From positions 598-64,597 of the forward strand of contig CAYHJU010000002.1 of the NCBI GenBank assembly GCA_964357175.1: a stretch of 64,000 nt of DNA. The letters run 5' to 3'. Shown here one piece after another: positions 35,050-51,924 of the stretch. The position numbers and the translations under genes were made by a program. Source of the stretch: an uncultured Candidatus Saccharibacteria bacterium (GTDB taxonomy: Bacteria > Patescibacteriota > Minisyncoccia > GWC2-36-17 > CAYHJU01). The notes beneath the pieces are model-generated. The model saw nothing but the letters and a program-made list of their open reading frames with translations. It made no database searches and was not told the origin of the DNA. Numbering within the stretch: the first letter of the stretch is position 1; every line of letters begins with the position of its first letter.

Positions 35050-35202
35050 AAAAAATTATTTTCCGGAGGTTATTTGCAATTATTTCTGAGTATACTATAT
35101 AAATAAATTTTTGCAAGAGCCCCGTGTTTGTTCAAATTGTGGATTTTATAAGCTGTTTGCTTTTTTAAAAAAGTTAAATATAATGAAAGTACAATTGAAT
35201 AT

Positions 35203-35277
35203 TCCGCGGTAGCTCAGTGGTAGAGCAGGCGACTGTTAATCGCTTGGTCGCTGGTTCGAATCCAGCCCGCGGAGCCA
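35203..35277 (+). tRNA. tRNA-Asn (anticodon GTT), CCA encoded
   Basis: Cloverleaf folded by hand. Acceptor TCCGCGG/CCGCGGA. D-arm GCTC-AGTGGTA-GAGC. Anticodon loop CTGTTAA. T-arm GCTGG-TTCGAAT-CCAGC. Discriminator G plus CCA. Confidence 0.9.
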
Positions 35278-36879
35278 TGTGGGATGAGCAGAGCCAAAAG
35301 CTCTGCTTTTCTCTTTATCTACGGGCTTTTTTAGCGGTTCGAATGTTGTATTTTTGTCTGTATTTTCTCCCAACATCTGTGATACTCGTTCAAATACCAT
35401 TTTGAAGGCTTTCTGGTATGAAATCTCAACTTTTTTGCCATTTATAATGGGGTTCGAAAATAAAAGGGACAAAAGTTGTTTCTTGTCGTCGACCATTTCG
35501 ATTGTGCTTCGATTCAAATAAATTCTCCTTGCCTCTTTAGCCATTTGTAAAAAGGTTGACCCCATATCGTAATACTTGAGGTTGGCATTTTTGTGCTTAT
35601 TCAAACCGTCCAGCACTTCCTCCTGTTCAATTTTGTATTGCTGGTACTTTTTCTGGTAGAAGTCCTCACTAATCTTGCCATCGATCTTATCATCGTAGAT
35701 CTTGTCCAGTCTCTGCGTGGCTACTTGGTAGCGTCGCTCGAGTTCGCCGGTGGCCTTTTGTCTGAATTCTATCTCCTCGCCGTGGCTTTCTTTGAGAGCC
35801 TCTTGGACCCAAGTCAGCATATTCTCTATGGCCTCATCGTGTTTTGAGCTTAAGTGTTCGATATTTTCCATTACTTGCAGGTCAATGTTCTCTTGTTTGA
35901 CCCATTCCTTTTGCTGGCAGTTTTTATAATGATTGCAGTGGCCATACCAGTGGCCTTTTTGTATCTCCCAAGTTATCCGGCCTTTACATTCCTCGCAGTG
36001 GAAGACATTTTTAAATAATGGATTGTGCTTGTTGTACTTCGGCGTGCCATTACTATGCATGATGTCTTGGCATCGCATGAATAATTCTTTGGTTATAAGT
36101 GGTTCGTGTCCGCCTTGAGCAACTTTTCCATTCCAGCGATTCATTCCGTAATAAAACGGATCACCAAGTAATTGGTGGACTCGTGAGTGACTGACTTTAT
36201 TTCCTCCCCGAGACCGCATGCCGAGTTTATGCATTTCATCGGCCAGTTTTTTGGTTGAGTAGCGATTGGAGGCATAAAGGTCAAACATCTTTTTGACCAG
36301 CGGAGATTTGTCCGGATCAATGATGTGGATTTTGTGCCCCTTCTCGCCAGTGGTTTGATATCCGAGTGGCGGTTTGCTTGGTAGCCAGCCTTGAGCCAGC
36401 TTTTCTTTTTGTCCCTTTTTCACATTCTCGGAAAGCAGACGGATATAATATTCGGCCGTGGCCACTTTGACTCGCCACATAAACCATTCGTGCGACTTGG
36501 AGTCTTTGTGGAGTGTACAGCCTTCTTTGACGAGGTGGATTGTGTGTCTTTCGTCCGCCAGTATCCATTCGTCAATTATCGGCACATCGGCGAAGTTACG
36601 GGTTAGGCGGTCGGTGGTTTCCACGAAGACCGTATTGATCTTGGCTTTGGTCACATAGTCCAGCATCTCGTGGAATATCTTGCGTTGGATTTTTCCGGCC
36701 GCCGATTCTTGAATGGCAAAAACTTTTACCAGATCAAAACCGTTTCTATCGGCATAATCGTGTAAAAGTTTTTCTTGAGCTGGTAGTGAGTAGCCAGTGT
36801 CTTCTTGGTCTTTGGAAGAGACACGGGCATATCCTACGGCTCGCATCGATTCATTTTCGTTTTGCATTGTCATAGTCAT
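35236..36879 (-). CDS. large serine recombinase (phage-type integrase)
   Basis: Resolvase catalytic domain 'AVGYARVSSKDQ'. Recombinase domain. Zinc ribbon 'CEECKG...HCNHYKNC'. Coiled-coil. The 3' end reads antisense through the tRNA-Asn 3' half. Likely real start at 'MRAVGY' (about 36846). Confidence 0.8.
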   Translation of the reverse strand: MTMTMQNENESMRAVGYARVSSKDQEDTGYSLPAQEKLLHDYADRNGFDLVKVFAIQESAAGKIQRKIFHEMLDYVTKAKINTVFVETTDRLTRNFADVPIIDEWILADERHTIHLVKEGCTLHKDSKSHEWFMWRVKVATAEYYIRLLSENVKKGQKEKLAQGWLPSKPPLGYQTTGEKGHKIHIIDPDKSPLVKKMFDLYASNRYSTKKLADEMHKLGMRSRGGNKVSHSRVHQLLGDPFYYGMNRWNGKVAQGGHEPLITKELFMRCQDIMHSNGTPKYNKHNPLFKNVFHCEECKGRITWEIQKGHWYGHCNHYKNCQQKEWVKQENIDLQVMENIEHLSSKHDEAIENMLTWVQEALKESHGEEIEFRQKATGELERRYQVATQRLDKIYDDKIDGKISEDFYQKKYQQYKIEQEEVLDGLNKHKNANLKYYDMGSTFLQMAKEARRIYLNRSTIEMVDDKKQLLSLLFSNPIINGKKVEISYQKAFKMVFERVSQMLGENTDKNTTFEPLKKPVDKEKSRAFGSAHPTWLRGLDSNQRPSD

Positions 36880-36977
36880 AATTTTGTTAATTTTACTAAG
36901 GTTCGAATTCGACTTTTGGTCTCAAGACACAACATACGCTATTTTTTCGGACAAGCTAAGCTCGAGTTGCCCACAGC

Positions 36978-37412
36978 TCATTTTTGTTGTTTTTTCTTGA
37001 CGCTTTCTAGTATTTCCGTGATGCGATAATAGTCTCGCTCATAGTCTTCGTCTGTATGGCCACCTCTTATACCGTTCTCGGATGGCGGACCGCTGACAAT
37101 GTCTAAAATTGCTTTAGCGGCTCGGAATTTCATTGCATCACTTTTGGCTCCCATAAGTGAGACCAAGATGTTGGCCGCAGTTACAGAATATTTCGCCAGT
37201 ATGGTATCCATTTCTTTATCACGAGTACTGTTTCTTTCTTTTTCGTATCGGTCGTATTCGTCTTTCAGTAAGCCATCTGACCGAAACCATCTCTTTACAC
37301 TGACATGAGAGACTTTAAGCATCCGGGCAATCTCTAAATAAGTAAAATCGCCATATTTTAAGCGGATCGCATTCTGATATTTTTCATTTTTTATGTCTAC
37401 AGATTTAGCCAT
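36978..37412 (-). CDS. HTH DNA-binding protein (terminase-small-subunit/excisionase-like), hypothetical
   Basis: 'YLEIARMLKVSHVSVKRWF' helix-turn-helix near the N-terminus. Confidence 0.4.
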   Translation of the reverse strand: MAKSVDIKNEKYQNAIRLKYGDFTYLEIARMLKVSHVSVKRWFRSDGLLKDEYDRYEKERNSTRDKEMDTILAKYSVTAANILVSLMGAKSDAMKFRAAKAILDIVSGPPSENGIRGGHTDEDYERDYYRITEILESVKKKQQK

Positions 37413-37500
37413 TTGGGTATCACTTAGTATCGTTTAACGATTGTTTATTATCGGCTTTTTGCTCATTTCGTTGCCCAATGTTGCCGTTTATAACCAAAAA

Positions 37501-38073
37501 TCATTTGTTTTGTAGGGTCATCTTGGCTACGAGTTTAGCTCTGGCCTCGGCCAAGAGTTTTAAATTCTTTGACCGGCCGTTAATTTCTTTATTATTTTCT
37601 TTAATTTCTTTTAATCCCTTATCTTCTATATCTTCTGCACCGGAGGCAGTCTGCGTGCTATGCCGTCCGGCTTTTGATGCTGATTGGTTTCCACCCTGCG
37701 TCAGATGTAGGACGGAAAGCAAAGTGATACCTCGGGGCTTGAACTTGGCGTCCTCGCCCCGAGTTTTCGTGATTGCGATAAAAGCCCACTCCTCGAGTTT
37801 GGACAAACAATTCTTAATCGTTCGCCAGTCTTTGAGTCCGGAATAAATCAAAAGCGTTTTGTTGGACGCCTCTATGGTTTGACTGGCTTTGTTGGAGGCA
37901 ATCTCGGTCAAAGCCAGATACATGTTCCGGAGATTCCGGTAGGCATCAATGCTTATATGCTTATCGAGCCATTGTTGTCGCATGTACCGCAAAGCTGGCT
38001 TATCTTGGTAAGCAAACGGCAATTCGCGATAATCCCTGATCTTATGTGGTTTGTCGCTCGGGTACTGTGTCAT
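37501..38073 (-). CDS. hypothetical island protein
   Basis: 190-aa ORF co-directional with the recombinase. Confidence 0.3.
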   Translation of the reverse strand: MTQYPSDKPHKIRDYRELPFAYQDKPALRYMRQQWLDKHISIDAYRNLRNMYLALTEIASNKASQTIEASNKTLLIYSGLKDWRTIKNCLSKLEEWAFIAITKTRGEDAKFKPRGITLLSVLHLTQGGNQSASKAGRHSTQTASGAEDIEDKGLKEIKENNKEINGRSKNLKLLAEARAKLVAKMTLQNK

Positions 38074-38251
38074 ATGGTTCTATAAGCTTTCGACCGCTCG
38101 TGATATCCTCCCAGTAGAATCGCGACAGAGCATCGTAATAACTCACAAGGTTGAATGCAATGTCGTGGAGGTCTTGATCATTCACTTCTTGGCCAAAGTC
38201 TTTCTTGAGAATCGCTCGGAGTTTTTCCAGCGTTTCCGGTTTTAACTTCAT
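38042..38251 (-). CDS. small hypothetical island protein
   Basis: 69-aa ORF. Confidence 0.25.
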   Translation of the reverse strand: MKLKPETLEKLRAILKKDFGQEVNDQDLHDIAFNLVSYYDALSRFYWEDITSGRKLIEPYDTVPERQTT

Positions 38252-38253
38252 AT

Positions 38254-38505
38254 TTATTCGTGGACATAGATCCTGGCTTTGGCGATTTTGATTTGGTTAA
38301 AGAACGCTTGAGGTTCGACCACAAGCTCTCGTTTCCAAAAACTGTCCATAAGCTTTTCGAGCTTGCGGTCAGTTTTAAATCCAAAGAGGACCTTATGCGG
38401 ATTTGTCCGATCCACGACCTCAAGAGATTCGGGCATTAATAATAAAAGCACCGCGATCAATGCCAGATCGGCGGTCTTGAAACTCTCACTTTGTTTGATT
38501 GGCAT
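38254..38505 (-). CDS. small hypothetical island protein
   Basis: 83-aa ORF. Confidence 0.25.
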   Translation of the reverse strand: MPIKQSESFKTADLALIAVLLLLMPESLEVVDRTNPHKVLFGFKTDRKLEKLMDSFWKRELVVEPQAFFNQIKIAKARIYVHE

Positions 38506-38651
38506 ATCATTTCATTTTTTTACTCTCACACATTTACATTTTGCCAATCCATACCTATCTCTTGGAATAATGTCCGGGTGTAGTTTGCCAACAAAAAAGA
38601 GCCCTATTTCAGGCTCTCCCATTGAAGTTATTAACTACACCGACTATTACG

Positions 38652-39344
38652 CTACAGTATTTTTATTTTATATTCTGGATTTAGGCGATAACCATTGCCG
38701 TCACGACCAACAATAAGATCAGATACGCCGATCCGACTTTCTGCTTTTCCGTTTATTTCCAGTTTGGAATTCCTGATCGCTTGGGTAGTAGTGCCAACCA
38801 TTTCGGCCAATTCAGCCGTCTTAACGAAACCCTTGGCCGAGCATAAAACTTTTATTAGTTTCTCTCGCATTTTCTCTTTGCTCATTGGGTAGCATTTTTG
38901 TTTATTGGATTCCAAATATAAATCACCGTCCGGTGAGAGGCAAAGCAGAATTCGCTTGTCTTTAGATGTTTTTTGTTTGGACCGTATCTTTTGGCTCTGG
39001 TCGTAGAAACCTTTAGCCATTTCTCGGCCAATCTGAGCTAGGCTTTGCTTGCTCAATTCTTTTAATTCATTTTTTAAATCGGCGATAGTCTTATTGGTTT
39101 CTTTTTTGTAATTATCAAACGAGGCTTCGGTTTTATTTAATCTATCTTTTAATTCGGCAAATTCAGTATCATGTTTGTTTACGATCTCGTCCGGATTCTG
39201 AATGCCATTGTTTTTTAAAGCAGTTACAACAATATTTTTAACTACACCCAACGAGAAATGATAGGTAGTGTTTACTCCCACAGACTGCTTGATATTGAAT
39301 TTATGTTTGGTGGTCAAAGTGACCTTTTTCATTTTCATAGTCAT
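38652..39344 (-). CDS. hypothetical island protein with C-terminal HTH-like segment
   Basis: 230 aa. 'VKTAELAEMVGTTTQAIRNS'. Confidence 0.35.
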   Translation of the reverse strand: MTMKMKKVTLTTKHKFNIKQSVGVNTTYHFSLGVVKNIVVTALKNNGIQNPDEIVNKHDTEFAELKDRLNKTEASFDNYKKETNKTIADLKNELKELSKQSLAQIGREMAKGFYDQSQKIRSKQKTSKDKRILLCLSPDGDLYLESNKQKCYPMSKEKMREKLIKVLCSAKGFVKTAELAEMVGTTTQAIRNSKLEINGKAESRIGVSDLIVGRDGNGYRLNPEYKIKIL

Positions 39345-39563
39345 ATTTTTACTGGATGTAAGCTTAATCCTTACTCCCAGTGCATTTTTTAGTGAATGGG
39401 ACCCATTTTATGCCATCCATTCACTAATCTTTGGATGTTTGCGGACATAATCGCATATAGATTGGCTATATCTGATTATTAAGGCTTGCATCAAAATACA
39501 TTATAGCATATAATATAAACTATACATAACATTTTTTGTAATGTTCTAAATTTAAGGAAAACT

Positions 39564-40160
39564 ATGGCCAAAATAGATATCATGAATTCAATACTTCGGT
39601 CAAAGCAAACGGTTTTTACTTTTAAAGAGGTAAACCTGCTTACTGATGGCCAAACTAGTCCTGCTTTGATGTATCGCCGAATAAGTTACTACATTAAAAA
39701 GGGTGCTCTCATCTCTCTCCGCCGTGGTGTTTACGCTAAAGATAAAAATTACGATAAGTTTGAGCTCGGAAATAAAATCTTTATCCCATCTTATATCAGT
39801 TTTGAAACCGTGCTTGCCAAAGCCGGAGTCGTTTTCCAGTTTTACGGACAAATTTTTGTCGCTACATATTTAACACGGGAGGTTAAAATTGGTGATCAGC
39901 TTTATTCTTATAAAAAAATTAAGAATCAAGTACTGGAACGAACAGACCACCCCACCGGAATTGAACATCGTGGTACATATTCCATCGCTACTCCGGAGCG
40001 TGCCTTTTTAGATGTTGTTTACCTTTCCAAAGATTATCACTTTGATAATTTATCGGCTTTGAATTGGGAAAAGGTTTTTGAAATTTTACCGATTTACGAA
40101 AACAAACAGATGGAAGAACGGGTTAAAAAGTATTACGAGTATTATCGGGAAAACCGGTAG
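39564..40160 (+). CDS. AbiEi-family (type IV TA antitoxin-like) winged-HTH transcriptional regulator, no AbiEii partner
   Basis: N-terminus 'FTFKEVNLL...SPALMYRRISYYIKKGALISLRRGVYA' matches the AbiEi_4 pattern. Confidence 0.5.
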   Translation: MAKIDIMNSILRSKQTVFTFKEVNLLTDGQTSPALMYRRISYYIKKGALISLRRGVYAKDKNYDKFELGNKIFIPSYISFETVLAKAGVVFQFYGQIFVATYLTREVKIGDQLYSYKKIKNQVLERTDHPTGIEHRGTYSIATPERAFLDVVYLSKDYHFDNLSALNWEKVFEILPIYENKQMEERVKKYYEYYRENR

Positions 40161-40188
40161 CCACCAAAAACATAATTATGACTATGAT

Positions 40189-43137
40189 ATGAAAATTACA
40201 GACCACCAAGCAAAATATTTCGCCTATGAATTGACCAAGCGTTGTGCTTCGGATAGTTTAGAGAAATTATCATCTACACTTTCTAACGCTCAAGTTGATC
40301 TTAATCCTCATCAGATTGAGGCGGCACTTTTTGCTTTTCGCTCGCCCCTTTCTAAGGGTGCGATATTGGCTGACGAGGTTGGTCTTGGAAAAACCATTGA
40401 GGCCGGACTGGTGCTCTCGCAAAAATGGGCGGAAAGGAAAAGAAAGATTTTATTGATCGTGCCATCGAGCCTACGCAAACAGTGGAATTCTGAACTTCAA
40501 GAAAAATTCTTTTTGCCGTCCATTATTTTAGAAACAAAATCTTTTAATCAATATATCAACGCCGGTAATTTAAACCCGTTTGAACAAGAAAATACTATAA
40601 TCATTTGCTCTTACCATTTTGCTCGAGCAAAAGCCCCATACATAAAAAAGGTTAAATGGGATTTGACGGTAATCGATGAAGCCCATCGCCTCCGCAATAT
40701 TTATAAAACCAGCAATAAAATTGCTAGGGATATCAAAGAGGCGTTATCCGAATCTCCCAAGATTCTCTTAACCGCTACGCCACTGCAAAATTCGCTACTT
40801 GAGCTTTACGGTCTTGTTAGTATTATTGACGACCATGTTTTTGGCGATCTAACCAGTTTTAAAGTTAACTACGCTCGGCTTTCTCGCGAGCAGGATGTCT
40901 ACGAAGGCGAGCTTGGCATGGTTGAACCTCGCCAAGAAATGTTTACTGATCTGAGAAATAGATTAAAACCAGTTTGTATTCGCACACTTCGAAGACAGGT
41001 TTTGGAATATATAAAATACACCAAGCGTATTCCGCTCACGCAGAACTATATTCCGACTGAACAGGAAATTGAGCTTTATGAGGGCATGTCCGGCTATTTA
41101 CAAAGACCGAAGCTTTTTGCTTTGCCTAATAGCCAAAGACAACTTATAACTTTAATACTCCGCAAGCTACTCGCTTCATCGTCTTTTGCAATTGCCAGCA
41201 CGCTTGATGGTTTGGTTTTTAAACTTGGCAAGCTTACGGAAAAAGCGGAGAAACAAAAAATCGTGGAAGAAATTGGTGTAGAAGGTCTTGATCAAAACTT
41301 TGAAGGCTTTGAGGAAATATCTGATGAATGGATTGATGACGAAGAGGACGACAGTGACGATAAGGATACTAAAGATAAGAAAGTAAAATATACCGACGAA
41401 GATATTGAGCTGATGAAGCAGGAAAAAATTGACCTGGAACACTTTCGTGATTTGGCAAAAAGTATTTGGAAAAATTCCAAAGGAGATGCTTTACTAACGG
41501 CCATTAAGCAAGGTTTTAAAATGACGGAAGAATTGGGGGCTAAGAAAAAAGCTATCATCTTTACCGAATCCACGATTACTCAAAATTATCTCTTGAAGTT
41601 ACTTTCCGATGACGGATATCAGGATAAGATTGTTTTATTTAACGGCTCAAACAACGACGAGAAATCAAAACAGGTCTATTCCGCTTGGGTAAAGGCCAAT
41701 AAAGATACGGATAAAATTACCGGCTCAAAGACAGCCGATATGCGTGCGGCCTTGGTGGAATATTTCCGAGACGAGGCTGAAATTATGATCGCTACCGAAG
41801 CGGCGGCCGAAGGTGTAAACCTGCAATTTTGTTCTCTTTTGATTAACTACGATCTCCCCTGGAATCCACAACGCATCGAACAGCGTATTGGTCGCTGTCA
41901 TCGTTATGGTCAAAAACATGATGTGGTGGTGATTAACTTTGTAAACTTAAAAAACGCAGCTGACCAGCGTGTCTATGAATTGCTGGATCAAAAGTTTAAT
42001 TTATTTAAAGGTGTTTTTGGTGCGAGCGACGAAGTGCTTGGCAACATAGAGTCTGGTGTTGATTTTGAAAAGCGAATTGCCGGTATTTATCAAACTTGCC
42101 GAACCGAGGATGAAATCAACGGGGCTTTTGATTCCTTGCAAAAAGAGATGGACACTACCATTCAAAGCAATCTCAAAGATACTCGCCAAAAATTGCTGGA
42201 AAACTTTGATGCCGAAGTCCACGAAAAGTTAAAGATGAATCTCAAGGAGAGCGAAACTTATTTAAATACCTATAATCAATGGCTTTGGGATGTTACCAGA
42301 TTTTATCTTGGTGACAATGCTGATTTTTCCGAACATGAGTATTCTTTTGTGCTCAAGAATAATCCCTTTTCCAATGAGCAAATAGACCCGGGACCGTACA
42401 AGATTGGCAAAAGCGTTGATGATGCCCATATCTATCGCCCCGCTCATTCTTTAGCACAAAGAATTTTAAACGAGGTAAAAACAAAGAACACCGAAGAAGT
42501 GGAGATTGTTTTTGATTATTCCAACACACCCGGAATTGTTTCCGTGCTTGAACCGCTGGTTGGTAAAAGTGGAATACTTAAGGTTTCTAATTATAAAGTG
42601 GAATCTTTTGAAGAAGAGGATATCGTGATAGCAACGGCAGTTGACGACGCCGGTGAAGTGGTAGATTCGGAAGTAGCTAAAAAACTATTTTCTATTTCCG
42701 CTCAAAAGACAGATAAAGCCGTGATCACCAAAGAACAAAAAGAAAAACTGGAAGAGCTGGAAAGCGGATCGGTTGGTCTAACCTCCCAGAGAATTGCCGA
42801 ACGCAATAGCGACTTTTTTGATAATGAAGTAGACAAGCTTGATAAATGGGCCGAGGATATGAAAAAGGCTCTTGAGCTTGATCTGAAAAAACTCGATGTT
42901 GATATTAAAATTTCTAAGACCAATGCCAAGAAAATTCTCAATCTTGATGAAAAACTGAAAGCTCAACGCGGTATCAAAGATATGGAAAAGAAACGCAATG
43001 AGATGCGTAAAAAATTATACGAAGCACAGGATACCGTAGAAGGCCGAAAGGAAAAGCTTATTGAGCAAGTCGAATCTCAATTGAAACAGAAATCAAAACT
43101 TGAGTCGTTGTTTACGATTCGGTGGAGGGTGGTTTAA
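40189..43137 (+). CDS. SNF2-family (DEAH-box) helicase with C-terminal coiled-coil
   Basis: Motif I 'DEVGLGKT'. Motif II 'VIDEAHRLRN'. SNF2 motif 'LLTATPLQNSLLELYGL'. Helicase-C 'LINYDLPWNPQRIEQRIGRCHR'. Start set at the internal ATG at 40189, after the AbiEi-like stop. Confidence 0.8.
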   Translation: MKITDHQAKYFAYELTKRCASDSLEKLSSTLSNAQVDLNPHQIEAALFAFRSPLSKGAILADEVGLGKTIEAGLVLSQKWAERKRKILLIVPSSLRKQWNSELQEKFFLPSIILETKSFNQYINAGNLNPFEQENTIIICSYHFARAKAPYIKKVKWDLTVIDEAHRLRNIYKTSNKIARDIKEALSESPKILLTATPLQNSLLELYGLVSIIDDHVFGDLTSFKVNYARLSREQDVYEGELGMVEPRQEMFTDLRNRLKPVCIRTLRRQVLEYIKYTKRIPLTQNYIPTEQEIELYEGMSGYLQRPKLFALPNSQRQLITLILRKLLASSSFAIASTLDGLVFKLGKLTEKAEKQKIVEEIGVEGLDQNFEGFEEISDEWIDDEEDDSDDKDTKDKKVKYTDEDIELMKQEKIDLEHFRDLAKSIWKNSKGDALLTAIKQGFKMTEELGAKKKAIIFTESTITQNYLLKLLSDDGYQDKIVLFNGSNNDEKSKQVYSAWVKANKDTDKITGSKTADMRAALVEYFRDEAEIMIATEAAAEGVNLQFCSLLINYDLPWNPQRIEQRIGRCHRYGQKHDVVVINFVNLKNAADQRVYELLDQKFNLFKGVFGASDEVLGNIESGVDFEKRIAGIYQTCRTEDEINGAFDSLQKEMDTTIQSNLKDTRQKLLENFDAEVHEKLKMNLKESETYLNTYNQWLWDVTRFYLGDNADFSEHEYSFVLKNNPFSNEQIDPGPYKIGKSVDDAHIYRPAHSLAQRILNEVKTKNTEEVEIVFDYSNTPGIVSVLEPLVGKSGILKVSNYKVESFEEEDIVIATAVDDAGEVVDSEVAKKLFSISAQKTDKAVITKEQKEKLEELESGSVGLTSQRIAERNSDFFDNEVDKLDKWAEDMKKALELDLKKLDVDIKISKTNAKKILNLDEKLKAQRGIKDMEKKRNEMRKKLYEAQDTVEGRKEKLIEQVESQLKQKSKLESLFTIRWRVV

Positions 43138-43229
43138 GGTTTTCAGTTATTTCCAAAATGGAAATAACTGAGTTGTCCGGAAATTCCGGAATACTGATAA
43201 AATAATTAACATTAATTAACTTAAAAAAT

Positions 43230-44069
43230 ATGTCATCAGAAAACAATAAACTTATAGCAATTTTTGAAGAACATCCCGTCCGCCGTACTTGGGATGAAAA
43301 GCAAGAAAAATGGTATTTTAGTGTGATTGATATTATTGCTATTTTAACTGGCAGCTCAATCCCCAAAAGATACTGGGCAGATTTAAAAAAGAAGCTAAAA
43401 ACAGAAGGTAGTCAGGTGTACGAAAATATCGTACAACTGAAATTATTAGCTAAAGATGGCAAAAAGTACCTTGCCGATGTGGCCGATGTTGAAGCTATTT
43501 TTCGTCTTGTCCAATCCGTACCCTCTCCCAAGGCCGAACCTCTCAAATTATGGCTGGCTAAAGTCGGTTATGAAAGAATGCAGGAAACTGTTGATCCAGA
43601 GTTATCAATTAGTCGTGGTCGCAAGAATTGGCAATTGATGGGAAGAAGTCAAAAATGGGTTGAGCAAAGAATGTTAAGCGTGGAAACAAGAAATAAATTG
43701 ACTGATTACTGGTCTGATCACGGGATAGAAAAAGGTGAAGAATTTGCCAAGCTTACAAATGTTATTCATCAAGAATGGAGCGGTCTTTCAGTAAAGAGCC
43801 ATAAAAATATTAAGAAACTGAAGTCTCAGAATTTGCGTGATCATATGAGTGAGGCTGAATTAATCTTTACCGCTTTGGCGGAACTTTCTACGAGACAGAT
43901 TTCCGAAACAGAAAAAGCGGAAGGATATGGGCAGAACGAGGTGGCCGCTCGAAAGGGTGGAAAAATTTCCGGTAATGCGCGTGAAGCGTTGGAACAGCAA
44001 ACCGGTAAAAAGGTCGTTAACTCTGATAATTATTTACCGAATAAAAAAGAGCCAAAGAAATTAAAATAA
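43230..44069 (+). CDS. DinD-like (DNA-damage-inducible protein D family) protein
   Basis: Recalled similarity to E. coli DinD across the length, e.g. 'LRDHMSEAELIFTALAELSTRQISETEKAEGYG' against DinD 'ILDHMGSTELAANLFRATQTEEKLKRDG'. Confidence 0.55.
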   Translation: MSSENNKLIAIFEEHPVRRTWDEKQEKWYFSVIDIIAILTGSSIPKRYWADLKKKLKTEGSQVYENIVQLKLLAKDGKKYLADVADVEAIFRLVQSVPSPKAEPLKLWLAKVGYERMQETVDPELSISRGRKNWQLMGRSQKWVEQRMLSVETRNKLTDYWSDHGIEKGEEFAKLTNVIHQEWSGLSVKSHKNIKKLKSQNLRDHMSEAELIFTALAELSTRQISETEKAEGYGQNEVAARKGGKISGNAREALEQQTGKKVVNSDNYLPNKKEPKKLK

Positions 44070-44070
44070 T

Positions 44071-45699
44071 ATGACTAATAAAAAGCAAAAACTAGAGTTA
44101 ACTTGGATCGGCAAGGACGAGGAATTAAAACTCGAGCCAAGGATTTTGATTGAGGACCCAAGCAAGTCCTATGGTGATAAGTCTTCCGAGAATATGCTTA
44201 TTCACGGCGACAACCTCCTTGCGCTCAAAGCTCTTGAGCAAGACTTTGCCGGCCGAATAAAATGTATCTACATCGATCCGCCGTATAATACCGGGAATGC
44301 ATTTGAACACTATGATGACGGAATTGAACATTCCACTTGGCTCAATTTAATAAAACCAAGATTAGAGATTTTAAAAAACCTATTAACAAAAGATGGAGTA
44401 ATATTTATATCTATTGACGAAGAAGAACAGGCGTATTTAAAGGTTCTTTGTGATGAAGTCTTTGAGAGAAAAAACTTTTGTGGAACGTTTATTTGGGAAA
44501 AAAAGAAAAAGCCATCGTTTCTCTCAAATATGGGTTCGATCACAGAGTTTATCTTATCGTATGCAAAAAATAAAACGTTAGCACCAAATTTCATTTATGG
44601 TGAGACGACGAAGAATAAAAAGTATCCTATCAACAATGCCGGGAATGGTGTAAGAATTTTAAAGTTTAAAGCCGGATCAGTTAACTTTAATATTAAAGAT
44701 GGTTTTATCGAGCCACAGGATATGTCGTCAGGAAATATTTTGACCAAATTATTGGATAGAGTTGAAATACGAAATGCTAAAAACGTTAGTGATTTTAGTC
44801 TTGAGGGTGAATGGCGATATTCTCAAACCAAACTTGATGAACTTATTGAAAGTAACGAGAAAATTTTAATTAGCCAAATTCCTTTTAGACCAAACCACAT
44901 AAAAACTGGCGGAGAGCCTAAGAAAATGAAGAATCTTTTAAGCATCGCTCATTATGATATGGCGACATATGAAGATTCAACGGCGGAGAGTATTAAAATT
45001 TTTGGTGACAATCCATTTGATTACCCTAAGCCTGAAAAATTATTGTATACACTTATTTCATCTGTTACTTCTGAAAATGATTTTGTTCTAGATAGTTTTC
45101 TCGGTTCAGGAACTACCGTCGCCGTAGCTCAGAAAATGGGAAGAAAATATATAGGAGTTGAACTCGGCAACCATGCTTATACGCACTGCGTTCCGAGACT
45201 CAAAAAAGTTATTGACGGCACTGATGGCCTTAAACTTTCGGAAGAGCTTGGATGGACAGGTGGAGGTGGATTCAAGTTTTATAATCTTGCCTCAAGCCTG
45301 CTTCGCAAAGATTCTTTCGGCAACTTCGTGATTGATGAAAACTATAATGCCAATATGTTGGCGGCCGCTATGTGTAAGCACGAGGGCTTTAAGTTTTATC
45401 CGGACGAGACGCTTTACTGGAAACACGGCAAATCCACCGAGACGGATTTCATTTTCGTCACTACCGGCTTTATCACTGCCGAGCAATTGGATAAAGTTCA
45501 CAGTGAGATGAAAGCTGGCGAGAGCTTGCTTATTTGCGCTAAAGCCTATGCCCCAGAATGCGAAAACCATTTTGCCAATATAACTATCAAGAAAATTCCG
45601 CAAATGATCCTCGGTCGATGCGAGTTTGGCAAAGATAATTATGATCTCAATATTATTAAAGCCACCGAAGCGGAAGCCGAGGAATCTAACGAAGAATAA
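44071..45699 (+). CDS. mod: Type III restriction-modification DNA methyltransferase (Mod, N6-adenine, beta-class)
   Basis: Motif IV 'IYIDPPYNT' precedes motif I 'DSFLGSGTT'. About 540 aa. Confidence 0.85.
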   Translation: MTNKKQKLELTWIGKDEELKLEPRILIEDPSKSYGDKSSENMLIHGDNLLALKALEQDFAGRIKCIYIDPPYNTGNAFEHYDDGIEHSTWLNLIKPRLEILKNLLTKDGVIFISIDEEEQAYLKVLCDEVFERKNFCGTFIWEKKKKPSFLSNMGSITEFILSYAKNKTLAPNFIYGETTKNKKYPINNAGNGVRILKFKAGSVNFNIKDGFIEPQDMSSGNILTKLLDRVEIRNAKNVSDFSLEGEWRYSQTKLDELIESNEKILISQIPFRPNHIKTGGEPKKMKNLLSIAHYDMATYEDSTAESIKIFGDNPFDYPKPEKLLYTLISSVTSENDFVLDSFLGSGTTVAVAQKMGRKYIGVELGNHAYTHCVPRLKKVIDGTDGLKLSEELGWTGGGGFKFYNLASSLLRKDSFGNFVIDENYNANMLAAAMCKHEGFKFYPDETLYWKHGKSTETDFIFVTTGFITAEQLDKVHSEMKAGESLLICAKAYAPECENHFANITIKKIPQMILGRCEFGKDNYDLNIIKATEAEAEESNEE

Positions 45700-45700
45700 T

Positions 45701-48352
45701 ATGAACACCAAAGCACAAGCAATTAAAAATCGTTTAAGCCTCCGCAAACCGCAAGCGGATAGTTTGGAAATTATAGAAAAACTGGCTGATGTCTTGGAAT
45801 TGAAAAAGAATGTTGATCCAGCTGGCGAGTTAGCTAAAATTCGAGCCTTATATCCGACTTGTTCTGATTTTGAACGAGACTTTCCCTCGGTTTGTTTTTC
45901 TCTGGCCACCGGCGTGGGTAAAACTCGCCTGATGGGTGCGTTTATTTCTTATCTTTATGTTGCCAAAGGTATAAAGAATTATTTTGTTCTAGCTCCCAAC
46001 CTCACGATTTATAATAAGCTCATTGACGATCTTTCCAATCTGCAAAGTCCGAAGTATGTGTTTCGTGGTATCAGTGAGTTTGCCGTTACCCCACCGCGTA
46101 TCATCACGGGCGATAATTATGCCGAAGCACGACAAAGCACGCTGTTTAAAGAAACGGTAAAGATAAATATTTTCAATATTTCCAAAATCAATTCCGAAGT
46201 CCGAGGAGGCCGTGAACCGAGAATCAAACGGCTTTCCGAATATCTTGGTGAGTCTTATTTCAACTATCTTTCCGAATTACCAGACTTGGTTTTGCTTATG
46301 GACGAATCGCATCATTATCGGGCAGACTCCGGACTAAAAGCGATTAATGAATTAAAGCCGATTTTAGGTTTAGAGCTTACTGCTACCCCGATTGATACGC
46401 ACAACAATAAATTTAAAAATGTTGTTTTTGATTATCCTTTGGCCAAAGCTTTGCAAGATGGTTTTGTAAAAGAACCGGCTATTGCGACTAGACGAGATTT
46501 TAACCCCGATCAATATCGCAATGATCCGAAAGAATTGGATTTGATAAAACTTGAGGATGGCGTGCGAATCCATGAAGACACCAAAGTAGCTTTGGATATT
46601 TATTCTCGCGATACCAATAATCGTTTGGTTCGCCCGTTTGTCTTGGTAGTGGCGAGAGATACAGATCATGCCAAAGAAATTCGGGAAATGATAGAGTCCG
46701 AAAGATTTTTTGAAGGACGCTACAAAGGCAAGGTCATGGAAATCCATTCTAATCAGCGAGGCGAAGAGAAAGAGGAAAATGTCCAGAGATTGTTGGATTT
46801 GGAAAAACCAGAAAATCCGATTGAAATTGTTGTGCATGTAAATATGCTCAAGGAAGGCTGGGATGTTACCAATCTTTACACCATTATTCCTTTGCGTGCG
46901 GCGAACTCCCAGATTCTTACTGAACAAACTATCGGCCGTGGCTTGCGCTTGCCTTATGGCGTGCGAACCGGTGTTGAAAAGGTGGACAAGCTCACTATCA
47001 TCGCCCACGATCGTTTCCAGTCCATCATTGACGCGGCCAATGATCCTAACTCTATAATCCGACAGGAAAATATTATTGAAATTGACCCGAACGCTTTGCC
47101 TGAAGCACAGGAAGTTATTACCGCTTCTTCGGTAACGGACGAAGCCTTTGCTCTTAAGCGTCAGGAAGTGGCGACTATCACAAACGAAGTGGACCGACAA
47201 AAGGCTGGCTTGGTTTTGGAAGCCGAGCAGTTGATCACTGAAGCTGTGAATGCCCTTGGTGCGAGCGTGAAAAATATCAATGACTTGAATAGCGACGAGA
47301 TTCGCAAACTGGCTTTTGAAAAAATAGTCACAAGTATTGAAAGCAACCCGCAACAAAATTTGTTTAAGTCGGCCATTGTTGAAGCGGCCAAACAAGAATA
47401 CGAGTCAGTCGTTTCTGAATTGATTGATAAGACAATCCCGATTCCGCGTGTGCTTATCCAACAAAAACACGATGTTAAATCCGGCTTTAAAGATTTTGAT
47501 CTTGATGTTGCCGGTCTTAATTACCAGCCAGTATCGGAAGAGATTATCCGCCGTACCTTGCGTACCAACGAAAGCGAAATCTTGCAAAGCGAAAGTTCCG
47601 GAGTAGAGCGTGATACTCCTGAGAACATTTTAGTGAACGAATTGATTAACTATCCGGAGGTGGATTATGATCGTGAGTCCGAGTTGTTGTACAAGCTGGC
47701 CAAACAAGCTATCGCTAAGCTTGGCAATGCCCGAAGCGAGGAAGATTTGGAAAATATTGTGCTTTATCATAAGCGAGAAATCGGCAAGTATATTTATGCT
47801 CAACTGCAACAGCATTTTTATTTGGAAAGTTCCGGCTTTGAAGAACCGTTGGTTTATCCTTTTGATCGGATAAAACCCCATAACTTTTCCAAGTACACAG
47901 CCGATAGCGTTCACCACTATACCGAGACGATCACGCCGACAAACACTATTCCCTCAAAAGTATTCAGCGGATTCAAAAAAGCCTGTCACAATCTGTACAA
48001 GTTTGATTCTAAATCTGAAAAAGATTTTGCCGCTATTTTGGAAAAGGATACGGATGTATTGAAGTGGCTCCGCCCGGCCGATTCGCAGTTCGAGCTTTAT
48101 TGGAAGTACAATTCAAAACGCTATCACCCCGACTTTGTGGTAGAGACCGCCGACACGATCTTTATGGTCGAGATTAAGGCAGAGAAAGATATTGATGATA
48201 CGGAAGTTCAAGAGAAAGCCGAGGCTGGTAAGAAATATTGCGAATCCGCTACGGTATTTAATCTAGCCAACGGAGGCAAGCAGTGGGTCTATGTTCTTAT
48301 TCCGCATACGGCTGTCGCACCGAACATGAGCTTAAAGGGGTTGTGTAAATAA
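45701..48352 (+). CDS. res: Type III restriction enzyme Res subunit (SF2 helicase + PD-(D/E)XK nuclease)
   Basis: Motif I 'ATGVGKT'. DEAH-like 'LLMDESHHY'. 'ELTATP'. C-terminal 'PDFVVE...MVEIKAEKD' nuclease motif. ATG 1 nt after the Mod stop. Confidence 0.85.
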   Translation: MNTKAQAIKNRLSLRKPQADSLEIIEKLADVLELKKNVDPAGELAKIRALYPTCSDFERDFPSVCFSLATGVGKTRLMGAFISYLYVAKGIKNYFVLAPNLTIYNKLIDDLSNLQSPKYVFRGISEFAVTPPRIITGDNYAEARQSTLFKETVKINIFNISKINSEVRGGREPRIKRLSEYLGESYFNYLSELPDLVLLMDESHHYRADSGLKAINELKPILGLELTATPIDTHNNKFKNVVFDYPLAKALQDGFVKEPAIATRRDFNPDQYRNDPKELDLIKLEDGVRIHEDTKVALDIYSRDTNNRLVRPFVLVVARDTDHAKEIREMIESERFFEGRYKGKVMEIHSNQRGEEKEENVQRLLDLEKPENPIEIVVHVNMLKEGWDVTNLYTIIPLRAANSQILTEQTIGRGLRLPYGVRTGVEKVDKLTIIAHDRFQSIIDAANDPNSIIRQENIIEIDPNALPEAQEVITASSVTDEAFALKRQEVATITNEVDRQKAGLVLEAEQLITEAVNALGASVKNINDLNSDEIRKLAFEKIVTSIESNPQQNLFKSAIVEAAKQEYESVVSELIDKTIPIPRVLIQQKHDVKSGFKDFDLDVAGLNYQPVSEEIIRRTLRTNESEILQSESSGVERDTPENILVNELINYPEVDYDRESELLYKLAKQAIAKLGNARSEEDLENIVLYHKREIGKYIYAQLQQHFYLESSGFEEPLVYPFDRIKPHNFSKYTADSVHHYTETITPTNTIPSKVFSGFKKACHNLYKFDSKSEKDFAAILEKDTDVLKWLRPADSQFELYWKYNSKRYHPDFVVETADTIFMVEIKAEKDIDDTEVQEKAEAGKKYCESATVFNLANGGKQWVYVLIPHTAVAPNMSLKGLCK

Positions 48353-48354
48353 AT

Positions 48355-49851
48355 ATGATAAAAAATGTACTGAGTTTAAATTCCATATATGCTAAAAAAT
48401 TCTTCCTAAGTCAGGAGGCATATTCAAACATGGAATTACCTCCGTACTTTGTGTTTAATAAGGTGCTTTTAGATATTGAAAAGTCTTTTGCTGGCAAGCT
48501 TACCCCGAAAGATTTAAATGAGGCAAAGAAAAATGAGACAGTTAACCATATTCTTTATGGAAATAAAGACGGAAAGTATGCGTGGAGAAAATATGAGCTG
48601 ATTAATCCATTACTATACATATCATTGGTGAATATCATCACAGAAAAAAGTAACTGGAAAGTTTTACAAGATCGTTTTAAGGAATTTGAAAAAGACAAAA
48701 ATATTGAGTGCGAGAGTGTTCCAGTATTGCCTACAAGCAGGTCTACGCAAAAAGCGATACAGATTTCGCAATGGGTAAACAATATTGAGAAAAAGTCTAT
48801 AGCTCTTTCACTGGAGTATAATTTTTTATACCAGACAGATATCACTGATTGCTATGGGTCGGTATATACACACTCTTTATCGTGGGCAATCCACACTAAA
48901 GCAGTATCAAAAAATAAGAGAAACTACGGTGATCTTTTTGGGAATAAAATTGATCACCATATTCAAGCAATGTCCTTTGGACAAACAAACGGAATTCCTC
49001 AGGGCAGTATATTAATGGATTTTATAGCAGAGATTGTTCTTGGATATGCAGACCATGAATTATCCGAAAAACTTGCTTCAGCTTTGAAAGGTAGAAAATT
49101 TCATATTTTAAGGTACCGGGATGATTATAGAATTTTTGTAAATGATGTAAGCGATGGTGATACAATCTTGAAATGCCTTGGTGAGGTTTTATTAAATTTA
49201 GGGTTTCGATTAAATACCAATAAAACCTATTTTGACGAAGATGTCGTCTCCGGCTCAATTAAAAAAGATAAGATCGAAGCCTTGAAGTTTGAGTATGTGC
49301 CTAAAAAATTATCAAGAAAAGAATTACTCAGGCAGTTACTTATAGTCCAGCAAATCGGCAAACAATTTCCAAATTCCGGGACGCTTAAAAACAGGCTTTC
49401 AAAGATACTGGATGTAGTTAAGCCAAAAGATTTTTATGCTCAGGAAAGAATCATCTCCAGTCTGCTTACTGATATTGCATACAACAACCCGAACTCTTTT
49501 CCGGTTATTGCCGGTTTAATTTCAAACTGCATCGCCAAATTGCCAAACAAAAGACAAAAGGAGATGGTGTCGCTGATCCAGTCAAAAATATGCATGCTGG
49601 CCAATATCGGCCTTTTAGAGATATGGACGCAAAGAATGTCTATAGGCTTGAAGTTTAAACTCAATTTAAACGAAAAATTGTGCAAGAGTGTTTATGGTGA
49701 CACACAACAGATATTTGAAACTGGTTGGATTAAAGATACGAAGATTAAAAATATCATTGATAGCAATGTTTGTATTGATAAAAAAATAATTGCTAAAACC
49801 AAAGCCAAAATTGAAAACAAAGAAGTGCAGATATTTAATCCTTATAATTAA
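48355..49851 (+). CDS. defence-associated reverse transcriptase (Abi-P2/AbiK/DRT-like; not a retron RT)
   Basis: RT motif A 'LYQTDITDCYGSV'. Motif B' 'NGIPQGSILMD'. Motif C 'LRYRDDYRIF' (Y-x-DD). About 180-aa alpha-helical C-terminal extension. Starts 2 nt after the Res stop. Confidence 0.7.
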   Translation: MIKNVLSLNSIYAKKFFLSQEAYSNMELPPYFVFNKVLLDIEKSFAGKLTPKDLNEAKKNETVNHILYGNKDGKYAWRKYELINPLLYISLVNIITEKSNWKVLQDRFKEFEKDKNIECESVPVLPTSRSTQKAIQISQWVNNIEKKSIALSLEYNFLYQTDITDCYGSVYTHSLSWAIHTKAVSKNKRNYGDLFGNKIDHHIQAMSFGQTNGIPQGSILMDFIAEIVLGYADHELSEKLASALKGRKFHILRYRDDYRIFVNDVSDGDTILKCLGEVLLNLGFRLNTNKTYFDEDVVSGSIKKDKIEALKFEYVPKKLSRKELLRQLLIVQQIGKQFPNSGTLKNRLSKILDVVKPKDFYAQERIISSLLTDIAYNNPNSFPVIAGLISNCIAKLPNKRQKEMVSLIQSKICMLANIGLLEIWTQRMSIGLKFKLNLNEKLCKSVYGDTQQIFETGWIKDTKIKNIIDSNVCIDKKIIAKTKAKIENKEVQIFNPYN

Positions 49852-49860
49852 AATAAAATT

Positions 49861-50610
49861 ATGTCTGAATATTACAACCCACAACGAACAAGAAGTTTAT
49901 ATGATCCGGCATCGGCTGAGTCCTTTAAGTTATCCCGATCAAAGATTGACCTATTTTTAAATTGCCCAAGATGTTTTTATTACGATCGCAAGCTTGGTGT
50001 CGGCCGTCCACCGGGCTTTCCATTCGCTTTAAACTCGGCCGTTGATCATCTCTTAAAGCTCGAGTTTGATATTCATCGTGTTGCCGGCACAAAACATCCC
50101 CTGATTGAAAAATACGGCGTTGACGCTCGCCCTATTGCTCACGAAGACTTGGATAAGTGGCGACATAACTTTACCGGTATTCAATATTTGCATCAGCCAA
50201 CGAATTTTCTTGTGTTCGGTGCAATCGACGATCTCTGGCAAAATTCCAAAGGCGAATACATTGTCGTGGATTATAAGTCCACTTCAAAAGATGAAGACAT
50301 TACCGAGCTTAATAAAGATTGGCAAATTGGTTATAAACGGCAGATGGAAATCTACCAGTGGCTACTTCGCCAAAACGGGTACAAAGTTTCGAGTACCGGC
50401 TATTTTGTCTATTGCAACGGCCAGACGGACCGAAAGGCTTTTGACGCCAAGCTTGAATTCGATATCACCTTAATCGCTTATAAGGGCGATGATTCTTGGG
50501 TTGAAAAAACTATCACGGAAGCCCACAAGTGTTTGAATGGTAATAAAATTCCCAACGCTGATCCTAATTGCGATTACTGCAATTATGTTCAGGCGATAAA
50601 TAGTAAATAA
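49861..50610 (+). CDS. Cas4-like/RecB-family PD-(D/E)XK nuclease with 4-Cys Fe-S cluster (DUF83-like)
   Basis: N-terminal 'SRSKIDLFLNCPRCFYY'. 'GAIDDL'. 'VVDYKST' (D-x-K). 'QMEIYQWL' (QhXXY). C-terminal 'CLNGNKIPNADPNCDYC'. Confidence 0.7.
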   Translation: MSEYYNPQRTRSLYDPASAESFKLSRSKIDLFLNCPRCFYYDRKLGVGRPPGFPFALNSAVDHLLKLEFDIHRVAGTKHPLIEKYGVDARPIAHEDLDKWRHNFTGIQYLHQPTNFLVFGAIDDLWQNSKGEYIVVDYKSTSKDEDITELNKDWQIGYKRQMEIYQWLLRQNGYKVSSTGYFVYCNGQTDRKAFDAKLEFDITLIAYKGDDSWVEKTITEAHKCLNGNKIPNADPNCDYCNYVQAINSK

Positions 50611-50615
50611 TTATT

Positions 50616-51914
50616 ATGCACAACAGAGATCCACATCAAGCCTTAAAAAGTGAAGTTATTGGGAAAGTCCGATCAGGGACAACTGATTTGGTCTTGGCAA
50701 AATTACAATGGAGTAAAGACGATATCGGTTATAGCCTACATGTGTCGCCAAACACCTTCAGCATCTCAGGTGGTTATCAGGTAACAGATTTTTTAAGCCA
50801 TTTGGGATTTCAGAGGAGTGGATGCTCTTTTATTGATAGTCGGCAATGTTATGTTCGCTGGGTAGATGCGAGTTTTGATCTTAATACTTTTGCTGGCTTT
50901 TTTGATCAAGCATATAGCAATCTAACCGACGCACAAAAGGACTTAGAAAAATGTGGTTTCTTTTTTGATAAACCAGAAGGTTTGGGATATTTTCTTGGTG
51001 GCCAATCTCGTAGCAGACAGCGTGATTTCCAAATGTCTGGAGATGGGCATGCTGCGATGTCAGTAAAGGTAATGAAGCAAAGCGAAGATGACGCTTTTCA
51101 ATACAAATTCACTTGGCTTGAATCCAGCCAAGATAAAGGATGGGTAATACATTACCGCCCAAAGCATCTGCCATTGTCATCTGAGCTTCAAAGCGTTTTT
51201 CAATTTTTAGGAATACATAATTTTGAGCAATGTCCGGAATACGAATTTGAACCATGTTATTGGTATTCAATCGCTTTTGAAGAAAGAGGAGATAGAATGT
51301 TTGATAGCAACGCGAACACTGCTCACAGTTGGTTTGATTCTCATGCACAACATTTCTCAATTGGCATTCAAAAGTTGCTTTCAGCCAATGCCGAAATTGA
51401 AAAATCTGGCCTTACTTTTTTGCCGTTTCAAAAACCGGCAGAACGGTTAAATATTGATATTGAGAAAAGGGTTACCAGACCAAAATCTTCTACCAAACCA
51501 GCGGATATTACTAAATTTGATGTGGCAATATCATTTGCTGGAACTGAACGAGAGCACGCAGAAAAATTAGCTACCATTTTGAAAGAGTCAGGATTTTCAG
51601 TCTTCTATGACGAATTTTATCCAGAATATCTTTGGGGTAAAAATCTAGTTGACACCTTTGATGAGATTTTTAGAAAGCGTTCTCGCTATTGTGTAATTTT
51701 TATTTCAAAGGACTATAAGGAGAGGGTTTGGACTAATCACGAAAGGCAAAGTGCCCAAGCAAGAGCTATCAACGAAAAAGGTAACGAATATATATTGCCG
51801 ATTAAAGTTGATGAGACAGAGCTTGACGGTATGCCACCTACGGTTGGTTATGTGCCTCTCAAAAAAGGAATTGAAAAAATTGGCGAGCTTCTGATTAAGA
51901 AATTAAAGACATAA
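50616..51914 (+). CDS. TIR-domain protein with ~280-aa uncharacterised N-terminal domain
   Basis: C-terminal 'KFDVAISFAGTEREHAEKLATILKESGFSVFYDE...CVIFISKDYKERVWTNHE' matches the bacterial TIR betaA-alphaA/betaD pattern. Confidence 0.65.
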   Translation: MHNRDPHQALKSEVIGKVRSGTTDLVLAKLQWSKDDIGYSLHVSPNTFSISGGYQVTDFLSHLGFQRSGCSFIDSRQCYVRWVDASFDLNTFAGFFDQAYSNLTDAQKDLEKCGFFFDKPEGLGYFLGGQSRSRQRDFQMSGDGHAAMSVKVMKQSEDDAFQYKFTWLESSQDKGWVIHYRPKHLPLSSELQSVFQFLGIHNFEQCPEYEFEPCYWYSIAFEERGDRMFDSNANTAHSWFDSHAQHFSIGIQKLLSANAEIEKSGLTFLPFQKPAERLNIDIEKRVTRPKSSTKPADITKFDVAISFAGTEREHAEKLATILKESGFSVFYDEFYPEYLWGKNLVDTFDEIFRKRSRYCVIFISKDYKERVWTNHERQSAQARAINEKGNEYILPIKVDETELDGMPPTVGYVPLKKGIEKIGELLIKKLKT

Positions 51915-51924
51915 TTCGAATACA

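Follow-up and report, generated by a model that had tools for sequence, protein, structure and literature searches.

A probable serine-integrase element in the last bases of a tRNA-Asn gene of Patescibacteria, with its attachment site inside the integrase reading frame

We analysed a 64,000-nt stretch of DNA (below, the window) from an uncultured Candidatus Saccharibacteria bacterium (contig CAYHJU010000002.1, positions 598 to 64,597), in which a tRNA-Asn gene and the gene of a large serine recombinase (the integrase, int) converge and overlap; small genes and a block of defence genes lie beyond int. The tRNA-Asn(GTT) gene (35203-35277, plus strand) is intact, encodes its CCA end and is the sole tRNA gene that ARAGORN finds in the window. 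The int gene (35236-36879, minus strand; identified with Pfam, AlphaFold and Foldseek) codes for 547 amino acids (aa) in its present, integrated form. The overlap of the two genes is 42 nt long, i.e. 13 codons and the stop codon; the stop codon falls within the anticodon loop of the tRNA, and a Trp codon at 35275-35277 is the complement of CCA. An earlier reading of the sequence (the original prediction) had placed here a tRNA-Asn gene and a large serine recombinase whose open reading frame (ORF) ends at 35236, with its 3′ end antisense to the tRNA. ARAGORN, the ORF listing and Pfam agree with the first part, and the second applies to the last 42 nt of the ORF, in a geometry that we found again in 81 of 137 related loci.

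Judged by every testable feature, the enzyme belongs to the large serine recombinases (LSRs). It has the N-terminal motif VGYARVSSKDQ and matches the Pfam families Resolvase (PF00239; E 1.3e-23, residues 14-164) and Recombinase (PF07508; E 2.4e-18). Among 38-50 homologues the residues R19, S21 and S22 are invariant, as expected of a resolvase-type catalytic domain; Cys295, Cys298 and Cys321 are invariant as well, and Cys315 is nearly so. The AlphaFold (AF2) model, built with 50 homologues and having a mean pLDDT of 79, shows a catalytic domain, a long alpha-E helix, a recombinase domain and a zinc ribbon interrupted by a coiled coil (helices 329-473 between beta hairpins). The catalytic 'YARVSSKDQ', the zinc ribbon and the coiled coil read earlier from the sequence were thus all recovered by Pfam and in the model. 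The best Foldseek matches in the PDB are full-length serine integrases, including PhiC31, Bxb1 and a Listeria integrase (E 2e-20 to 2e-11). Identity to the solved integrases is 13-17%, and by sequence alone the solved structures match the catalytic domain only.

Both ends of the insertion could be placed with an empty site. We looked up contigs encoding exactly the flanking ribosomal protein S20 and cold-shock protein (csp; 52850-53047), and one of them, L018 (836 bp, from a different well in the same aquifer), consists of window positions 35128-35277 joined directly to 52681 onward. It is identical to the window at 834 of 836 positions (two mismatches; 99.8%), and its tRNA-Asn sequence is the same. 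The insert is therefore 35278-52680, 17,403 bp; the insertion is precise, and occupied and unoccupied sites exist within one population. The direct repeat shared by the left and right junctions (attL and attR) is GAGCCA only, placed by comparison of attL, attR and the empty site (attB) at 35272-35277 in attL and at 52675-52680 in attR, neither core being assigned to a strand; the attR copy is the displaced original 3′ end of the tRNA. In the tRNA, GAGCCA (nt 71-76) covers the final base-pair positions of the acceptor stem, the discriminator base and the CCA end. In the empty site the tRNA is followed by the sequence now at 52681-52715 (plus strand), which has a weak hairpin and a run of six U (fold −8.2 kcal/mol, z −1.95; no call in the strict terminator scan). 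This is presumed to be the native terminator of the tRNA, now 17.4 kb away from it. We consider it very probable that 35278-52680 is an intact integrative element, placed by its own large serine integrase in the last bases of tRNA-Asn.

The original prediction had taken the 3′ region of the tRNA as the attachment site and the defence block as cargo, and had proposed a search for an empty tRNA-Asn site among related DNA; such a site exists, and the joining of 35277 to 52681 in it supports that proposal. Naming the 3′ half of the tRNA pointed to the correct end of the gene, although the crossover is at the extreme 3′ terminus, at about nt 71-76. No attR repeat had been seen by eye, which holds for a long tRNA repeat, but a true repeat of 6 bp does exist. 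Low-stringency blastn and a repeat search for a direct repeat of the tRNA in the window likewise gave chance-level matches only (for example, 51114-51129 and 11188-11225). The attR site escaped both the eye and the repeat searches because the shared core, GAGCCA, is too short; a few bases in common are all that a serine integrase requires. The suspicion that the element is degraded, or that its right end lies beyond recognition, was not borne out: the right end is in the window, at the attR core.

The crossover falls inside int. In the 120 nearest protein clusters the C-terminal sequence is common as far as ...FEP...(H/R)P(I/T)WL, after which it takes one of two forms: the first is of the xxDSNxxP type, the antisense of the tRNA T-arm, and the second is a different conserved tail. 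The variety of the 'DSNxxP' tails could be taken for a sign of different tRNAs; a tRNA scan found mostly tRNA-Asn variants. A tblastn search of the window with the conserved tails gave a match at 52683-52570 (minus strand), ...V-I-W-L-ALLNDFRTFDWASEYKYPTVVLDQMKEMLAKYANV-stop, exactly at attR. By tblastn, translation and a hidden Markov model (HMM) of the tails, this detached integrase tail occupies 52567-52674 (minus strand; 35 codons and a stop codon). Its reading frame is that of the WL codons in the core; it lacks a start codon of its own and is not among the listed ORFs. The HMM, built from 36 tails, scores 56 bits against the attR segment of the window (E 1e-14); the window tail reads ALLNDFRTFDW...PTVV...ML, and the family motif is W-D-D-F-R-T-x-x-W...P-E...L-L.

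In the integrated int gene, residues 1-536 are encoded by the element and are followed by 11 residues (RGLDSNQRPSD) encoded by the antisense of the host tRNA and a stop codon. The last 11 codons are host tRNA sequence because the crossover lies at the extreme tRNA 3′ terminus. When the element ends are joined in silico, a 571-aa ORF results, with the crossover between codons 536 and 537; we infer that precise excision would rebuild this 571-aa integrase. AlphaFold gives the tail two short helices (537-544 and 554-570, pLDDT ~70) after a low-confidence linker of ~35 residues, and no degradation tag is evident in the tail.

The architecture of the attachment sites was examined with consensus arms derived from 71 attL, 12 attR and 12 P-type junctions (those in which int is fused directly to a full tail). 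All consensus arms have GGA at +9 to +11 from the junction. GAAC stands at +15 to +18 in the 71 B arms (the tRNA arm, GAAC coming from the T-loop) and at +20 to +23 in the 24 P arms (the tail arm). For the Listeria LI integrase, the zinc-ribbon motif of attP is described as displaced outward by 5 bp from its place in attB (PMC3783163), and at the sequence level the 5-bp outward shift of GAAC agrees with that rule. The T-arm of the tRNA would then be the B half-site, and the first ~25 bp of the tail-coding DNA a P half-site mimicking the T-arm, with GAAC 5 bp further out. The core shared by attP and attB is 6 bp in the window and 4 bp (GCTC; GAGC on the tRNA strand) in two related loci, L196 and L183; since the shared core in these two is only GCTC, the crossover lies within tRNA positions 71-74. 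From the symmetry of GGA on the P and P′ arms, the central dinucleotide would be GA, at 35272-35273, which falls within this minimal core. The predicted attP of the window element contains GTTGAGCAGGGCGAGCCATGTGGGATGAGC and its predicted attB contains CCCGCGGAGCCAAATTACAAAAATCG.

Just past the tRNA, the codons of int also hold an intrinsic-terminator-like hairpin, GAGCAGAGC-CAAAA-GCTCTGCTT with a T-run (35286-35317, plus strand), detected by a terminator scan and by folding. It starts 9 nt past the tRNA end, consists of a 9-bp GC-rich stem followed by TTTTCTCTTT, has a folding energy of −19.8 kcal/mol and lies inside the int codons KEKSRAFGSA. Under a strict definition (hairpin plus T-run within 60 nt, in the tRNA sense) such a structure is present at 56 of 110 distinct junctions of the family, with 23 different stem sequences; as controls, it was found in 4.3% of stretches taken from other parts of int, in 2% of shuffled sequences and, read in the int sense, at 2 of 110 junctions. 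The stems vary with their pairing kept, and the encoded peptides vary along with them (SRAFGSA, TPAFADV, NGRFASV and others). RNAalifold made no prediction on the ungapped terminator alignment, in which the hairpins are out of register, and the per-sequence hairpin test with controls was used in its place. With the native terminator displaced, the hairpin is likely to end transcription of the tRNA and to keep read-through off the antisense of int. The element would, in this scheme, replace the terminal bases of the tRNA and bring a new terminator folded from integrase codons. As a separate observation, several independent assemblies of the same strain (L003-L005, L007 and L008) break 32-57 nt past the tRNA end (window 35309-35334), just after the conserved P′ arm and the terminator, which suggests that co-occurring variants share the stretch around these positions.

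Scans of GTDB genomes and JGI metagenomes yielded 160 related loci (43-99% identity), nearly all from Patescibacteria and from many classes of that phylum. The integrase C-terminus could be placed in 137 of them, and in 81 of these a W (or L) codon falls exactly on the 3′ end of a convergent tRNA gene (71 Asn, nine Gln and one Leu). The protein has WL at this point if the tRNA gene encodes CCA, and LL or ML if it does not. A further 20 loci have tRNA-like antisense tails without a tRNA call, which brings the geometry to about 100 of 137. Pseudo-sites were considered as an explanation of these tails; an Rfam scan of nine loci with long tails revealed group I introns at five of them (RF00028, 55-102 bits: L143, 11652-12044; L155, 1609-1848; L148, 3555-3835; L032, 4642-4926; L054, 4624-4820). 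The introns lie directly beyond the integrase 3′ end, where relatives have an uninterrupted tRNA, so that the targets at these five loci are tRNA genes split by an intron, and the int ORF continues through the intron antisense for an additional 30-60 residues.

Among loci with enough flanking sequence, 12 independent attR-type tails were found upstream of int, on the same strand and directly after ...GCTC. Both junctions could be placed in three loci besides the window, giving elements of ~7-11 kb. Integrases 97-99% identical to that of the window occur at tRNA-Asn, tRNA-Gln(TTG) and a tRNA with an intron, so that the choice of target is less strict than the divergence of the proteins would lead one to expect. 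Two further variations were observed in the family. A second tail family follows the WL codons in L033, L034, L153, L160 and L198; it reads R(T/V)VN(R/N)VRT(I/F)FERQNEYIYIPDL, keeps the position of V-R-T (CGAAC) and is otherwise unrelated to the main tail motif. Homologues 46-48% identical (L071, L075 and L081) are on contigs binned as Nanoarchaeia, Methanodesulfokora and Bathyarchaeia, and L071 shows the tRNA-Asn overlap; for these three, mis-binning and real archaeal hosts are both possible.

Integrases with a P-type tail were considered as markers of the excised circle. Two close relatives of the window integrase, L022 and L222 (same 90% cluster), have such tails and are on contigs of 21 and 22.6 kb; in the 5.2 and 13.5 kb examined there is no tRNA, only unannotated, transposase or defence-type genes. 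As a general rule the marker was ruled out by L038, L075 and L203. In L038 (4593-7552) an integrase with a full P-type tail is directly beside rpoD-dnaG, and in L075 (4560-7514) another is beside a tyrosine integrase and EF-1alpha on an archaeal contig. L203 (3900-17160) is a tandem array in the order attR-type tail, element A, intA, P arm and tail of element B, element B, intB and tRNA-Asn; intA is 48% identical to the window integrase, and intB is a second LSR, only 22% identical. Element B thus stands between the int gene of the first element and the tRNA, and intA is fused to the P arm of element B. New arrivals seem to enter at attL, the junction of the resident element nearest the tRNA, and so fuse the resident integrase to a foreign tail. 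A different arrangement was seen in L019 (10001-13086), where the integrase, 96% identical to that of the window, is not located at a tRNA gene. Its tail is degenerate (GVWDTIGTDLGN...) and runs into the 3′ end of a 361-aa ORF that converges on it; 1.4 kb beyond stands an unoccupied tRNA-Gln that has a terminator of its own.

The substitution pattern of the tail was analysed in 17 tails (11 of the attR type and six fused directly to int), which align without gaps over 30 codons. The entropy at the three codon positions is 1.23/0.83/1.49. The ratio of nonsynonymous to synonymous differences (pN/pS) is 0.55 in frame vs 0.81 and 1.19 in the other two frames, and over codons 10-30, at a distance of 28-90 bp from the crossover and thus outside the 25-bp half-site, it is 0.57. 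The stop codons fall at codons 31-43: at 31-36 in all 11 attR-type and three of the six fused tails, and at 40-43 in the other three fused tails. This pattern favours a tail under selection as a translated protein segment; it does not indicate what the function of the segment is. Loss of the tail on integration might alter the activity, stability or partners of the integrase. A more specific idea, which we regard as tentative and rather doubtful, is that the integrase has a built-in sensor of its own integration state, the 35-residue module, which it would have only when the element ends are joined. The module would be present in the free circle or beside another element, and would tune directionality, stability or partner binding.

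Several observations weigh against these interpretations, some against a functional tail and some against the element as a whole. WDDFRT, the best-conserved stretch of the tail, is encoded where the P arm, the mimic of the T-arm, lies, and its conservation may be at the DNA level rather than at the protein level. The host-encoded tails that replace it are patternless and range from 2 to about 60 residues; such variability leaves them without a specific function in themselves. P-type tails are also seen on int genes that sit in chromosomal surroundings (L038, L075, L019 and L203), and no recombination directionality factor was recognised with Pfam and PHROGs among the small genes next to int. 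The excised junction (attP) of the exact element was not found, the 571-aa sequence being absent from a collection of 15 billion proteins. Base composition gives no independent support either, neither G+C nor skew having a usable boundary signal in the window. The rise in G+C that had been noted from about 35.3 kb is marginal (insert 39.9%, left flank 37.5%, right flank 40.1%); only the module of int and its neighbouring small genes, at 42.1%, is raised, by ~1.5 standard deviations above the window mean. Near-uniform G+C does not refute the insertion, because the empty site is direct evidence for it.

The first two of these observations fit an explanation that accepts the insertion and denies the overlap of ORF and attachment site any regulatory meaning: int would merely run across attP, with the proximal tail kept as a P-arm DNA-binding site and the rest as a dispensable appendage that makes no difference to whether the integrated form works. 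The low-confidence linker by which the tail is attached agrees with it, as do integrases that are 98% identical and have very different tails (the window vs L022 and L222). It is harder to reconcile with codons 10-30, which lie outside the half-site and show both coding-type substitution and a conserved W, (Y)PE and LL, or with the tightly constrained length of the tail. We see this explanation as a serious possibility, though not as one that we would call probable.

The missing attP junction, together with the fact that all other contigs carrying the flanking csp gene have the element, would also suit a fixed and decaying relic that is no longer mobile. A relic of this sort is very unlikely: the ORFs are complete, attL and attR are precise and retain the in-frame tail, the empty site in the same aquifer is 99.8% identical to the flanks, and the integrases 97-99% identical to this one are at other tRNAs in other genomes.

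Next to int, the element has a backbone module of five small genes on the same strand (36978-39344, minus): a 144-aa gene (weakly terS-like, helix-turn-helix, HTH), a 190-aa and a 69-aa gene, an 83-aa gene (DUF5659) and a 230-aa gene (C-terminal HTH-like). They had been foreseen as small HTH phage-like genes. The genes are present, but their HTH and phage-like character is weak, the matches being Sigma70_r4_2 below threshold, a terS-like PHROG (9e-10) and the one DUF5659. The backbone gene order is the same in L019 and L222, and these genes are candidate regulators or directionality factors.

The cargo (39564-51914, plus strand; Pfam and PADLOC) is a cluster of anti-phage system matches, i.e. 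a predicted defence island. It comprises AbiEi (39564-40160; PADLOC 2e-60), a DrmD-like SNF2 helicase (40189-43137; DrmD, 7e-209), a PDC-S13/Bro-N protein (43230-44069; 9e-119), a type III methyltransferase (44071-45699; 3e-153), a type III restriction enzyme with a TnsA-like nuclease (~45701-48352; 1e-190), an AbiP2-type reverse transcriptase (48355-49851; 5e-173), a Cas4-like PD-(D/E)XK nuclease (49861-50610; Pfam/PADLOC) and a TIR-domain protein (PDC-S66; 50616-51914; 5e-19), all on the plus strand. At its right end the element has two small ORFs of 102 and 59 aa (51925-52416, plus strand). For the 190-, 69-, 102- and 59-aa genes, no function emerged from Pfam or PHROGs with relaxed thresholds. 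The AbiEi-like antitoxin gene (39564-40189 region) is without an AbiEii toxin partner, and with its 3′ end it extends into the DrmD-like helicase ORF if the latter is read from its most upstream possible start.

This gene content bears on the possibility that the element is viral (a temperate phage or phage satellite) instead of a non-viral island. The Bro-N/PDC-S13 protein matches phrog_15286 (6.4e-89), a PHROG without an assigned function, and the int-adjacent 144-aa gene has the weak terS-like match given above. Set against these, no capsid, portal, tail or lysis gene is found in the 17.4 kb by Pfam or PHROGs, and all large genes in the element are defence genes. The closest relative of the integrase in IMG/VR is 40% identical, and the best GenBank phage match has <32% identity over at most 69% of the protein. 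A phage or satellite is a very unlikely explanation of the element.

Two repeats were seen elsewhere in the window. A 23-nt GC-rich palindromic sequence, TCGCCTGCCTGCCGGTAGG(T/C)AGG, occurs in two near-identical copies (57405-57427 and 60107-60129) that bracket AAA_28, PHO4 and PhoU, and a direct repeat of 155 nt (79% identity, spacing 195 nt; 56848-57197) lies inside a 119-aa minus-strand ORF.

The window integrase has the domain order of the LI/A118, PhiC31, Bxb1 and SPbeta-type integrases. As with these phage-type LSRs, the identity between attP and attB is very short, the inner half-site motif is shared and the outer motif lies 5 bp out in attP. Unlike them, the window element targets a tRNA 3′ terminus and not a protein-coding or intergenic site; its attP is inside its own int ORF, the C-terminal 35 residues being detached upon integration; its int codons encode a putative terminator; its hosts are Patescibacteria; and its cargo consists of defence genes. 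Islands of the Islander/P4 type similarly have an intact adjoining tRNA, int next to the tRNA and accessory cargo, whereas the window integrase is of the serine and not the tyrosine family and there is no tRNA-fragment repeat. Only 4-6 bp are duplicated in the window family, vs a tRNA fragment of tens of bases in the Islander/P4 type, and repeat-based island finders would therefore miss islands of the window type.

In integration of the archaeal SSV1 type, attP lies in the gene of a tyrosine integrase, the target is a tRNA gene and integration splits the integrase gene into two fragments. The likeness consists in an attP inside the int ORF, a gene that differs between the free and the integrated state and a tRNA target; the difference is that the window enzyme is a serine integrase that keeps all catalytic and DNA-binding domains and loses only the 35-residue tail. 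In mycobacteriophages of the BPs type, attP lies inside the repressor gene, immunity depends on integration and the protein has state-specific forms. In phiRSS0, attP is inside ORF13, and integration changes the C-terminus of a regulator (PMC3816273). In these two cases integration affects a repressor or regulator and is carried out by a tyrosine integrase or XerCD, while in the window the affected protein is the serine integrase itself.

The filamentous phages phiRSM of Ralstonia have a small serine recombinase, and their attP and attB are the 13-nt 3′ end of a tRNA-Ser; here too a serine-family recombinase acts at a tRNA 3′ end that is in reverse orientation to the recombinase gene (PMC3816273). 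The phiRSM enzyme is small and resolvase/invertase-like, without the recombinase and zinc-ribbon domains of the window integrase. In phiRSM the attP lies between ORFs, the core has 13 nt and the element is an inovirus; in the window the attP is in the int ORF, the core has 6 bp and the element is a defence island. According to a standard island-finding paper, serine-family integrases are not known to target tRNA genes; tRNA is not mentioned in the large LSR surveys among those retrieved; and 27 of 937 tycheposons have an LSR. A literature search, of incomplete coverage and so giving absence of evidence only, found no report of a large serine integrase with attP in its own ORF. The window element is a well-delimited member of a large and apparently undescribed group of serine-integrase elements in Patescibacteria that target tRNA 3′ ends. 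In this group the att site is embedded in the int ORF, the C-terminus of the integrase varies with the integration state and the int codons hold a terminator-like hairpin.

Serine integrases are the main tools for inserting large DNA, and their natural targets have been taken to be protein-coding or intergenic. The family described here is widespread in Patescibacteria, has as its target the conserved T-arm and the 3′ terminus of the tRNA-Asn or tRNA-Gln gene, and is a natural, precisely mapped integration system for a phylum with very few genetic tools. It also illustrates how defence genes move between the reduced genomes of these bacteria. The terminator in the integrase codons would be a compact case of overlapping coding and RNA-structure constraints. 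With this locus, the dependence of an integrase's protein sequence on the integration state becomes open to test. If the tail does act as supposed above, one gene would give an 'integrating' enzyme while the element is free and another, lacking the tail, while it is in the chromosome, and the control of serine integrase directionality would not rest on a separate directionality factor alone.

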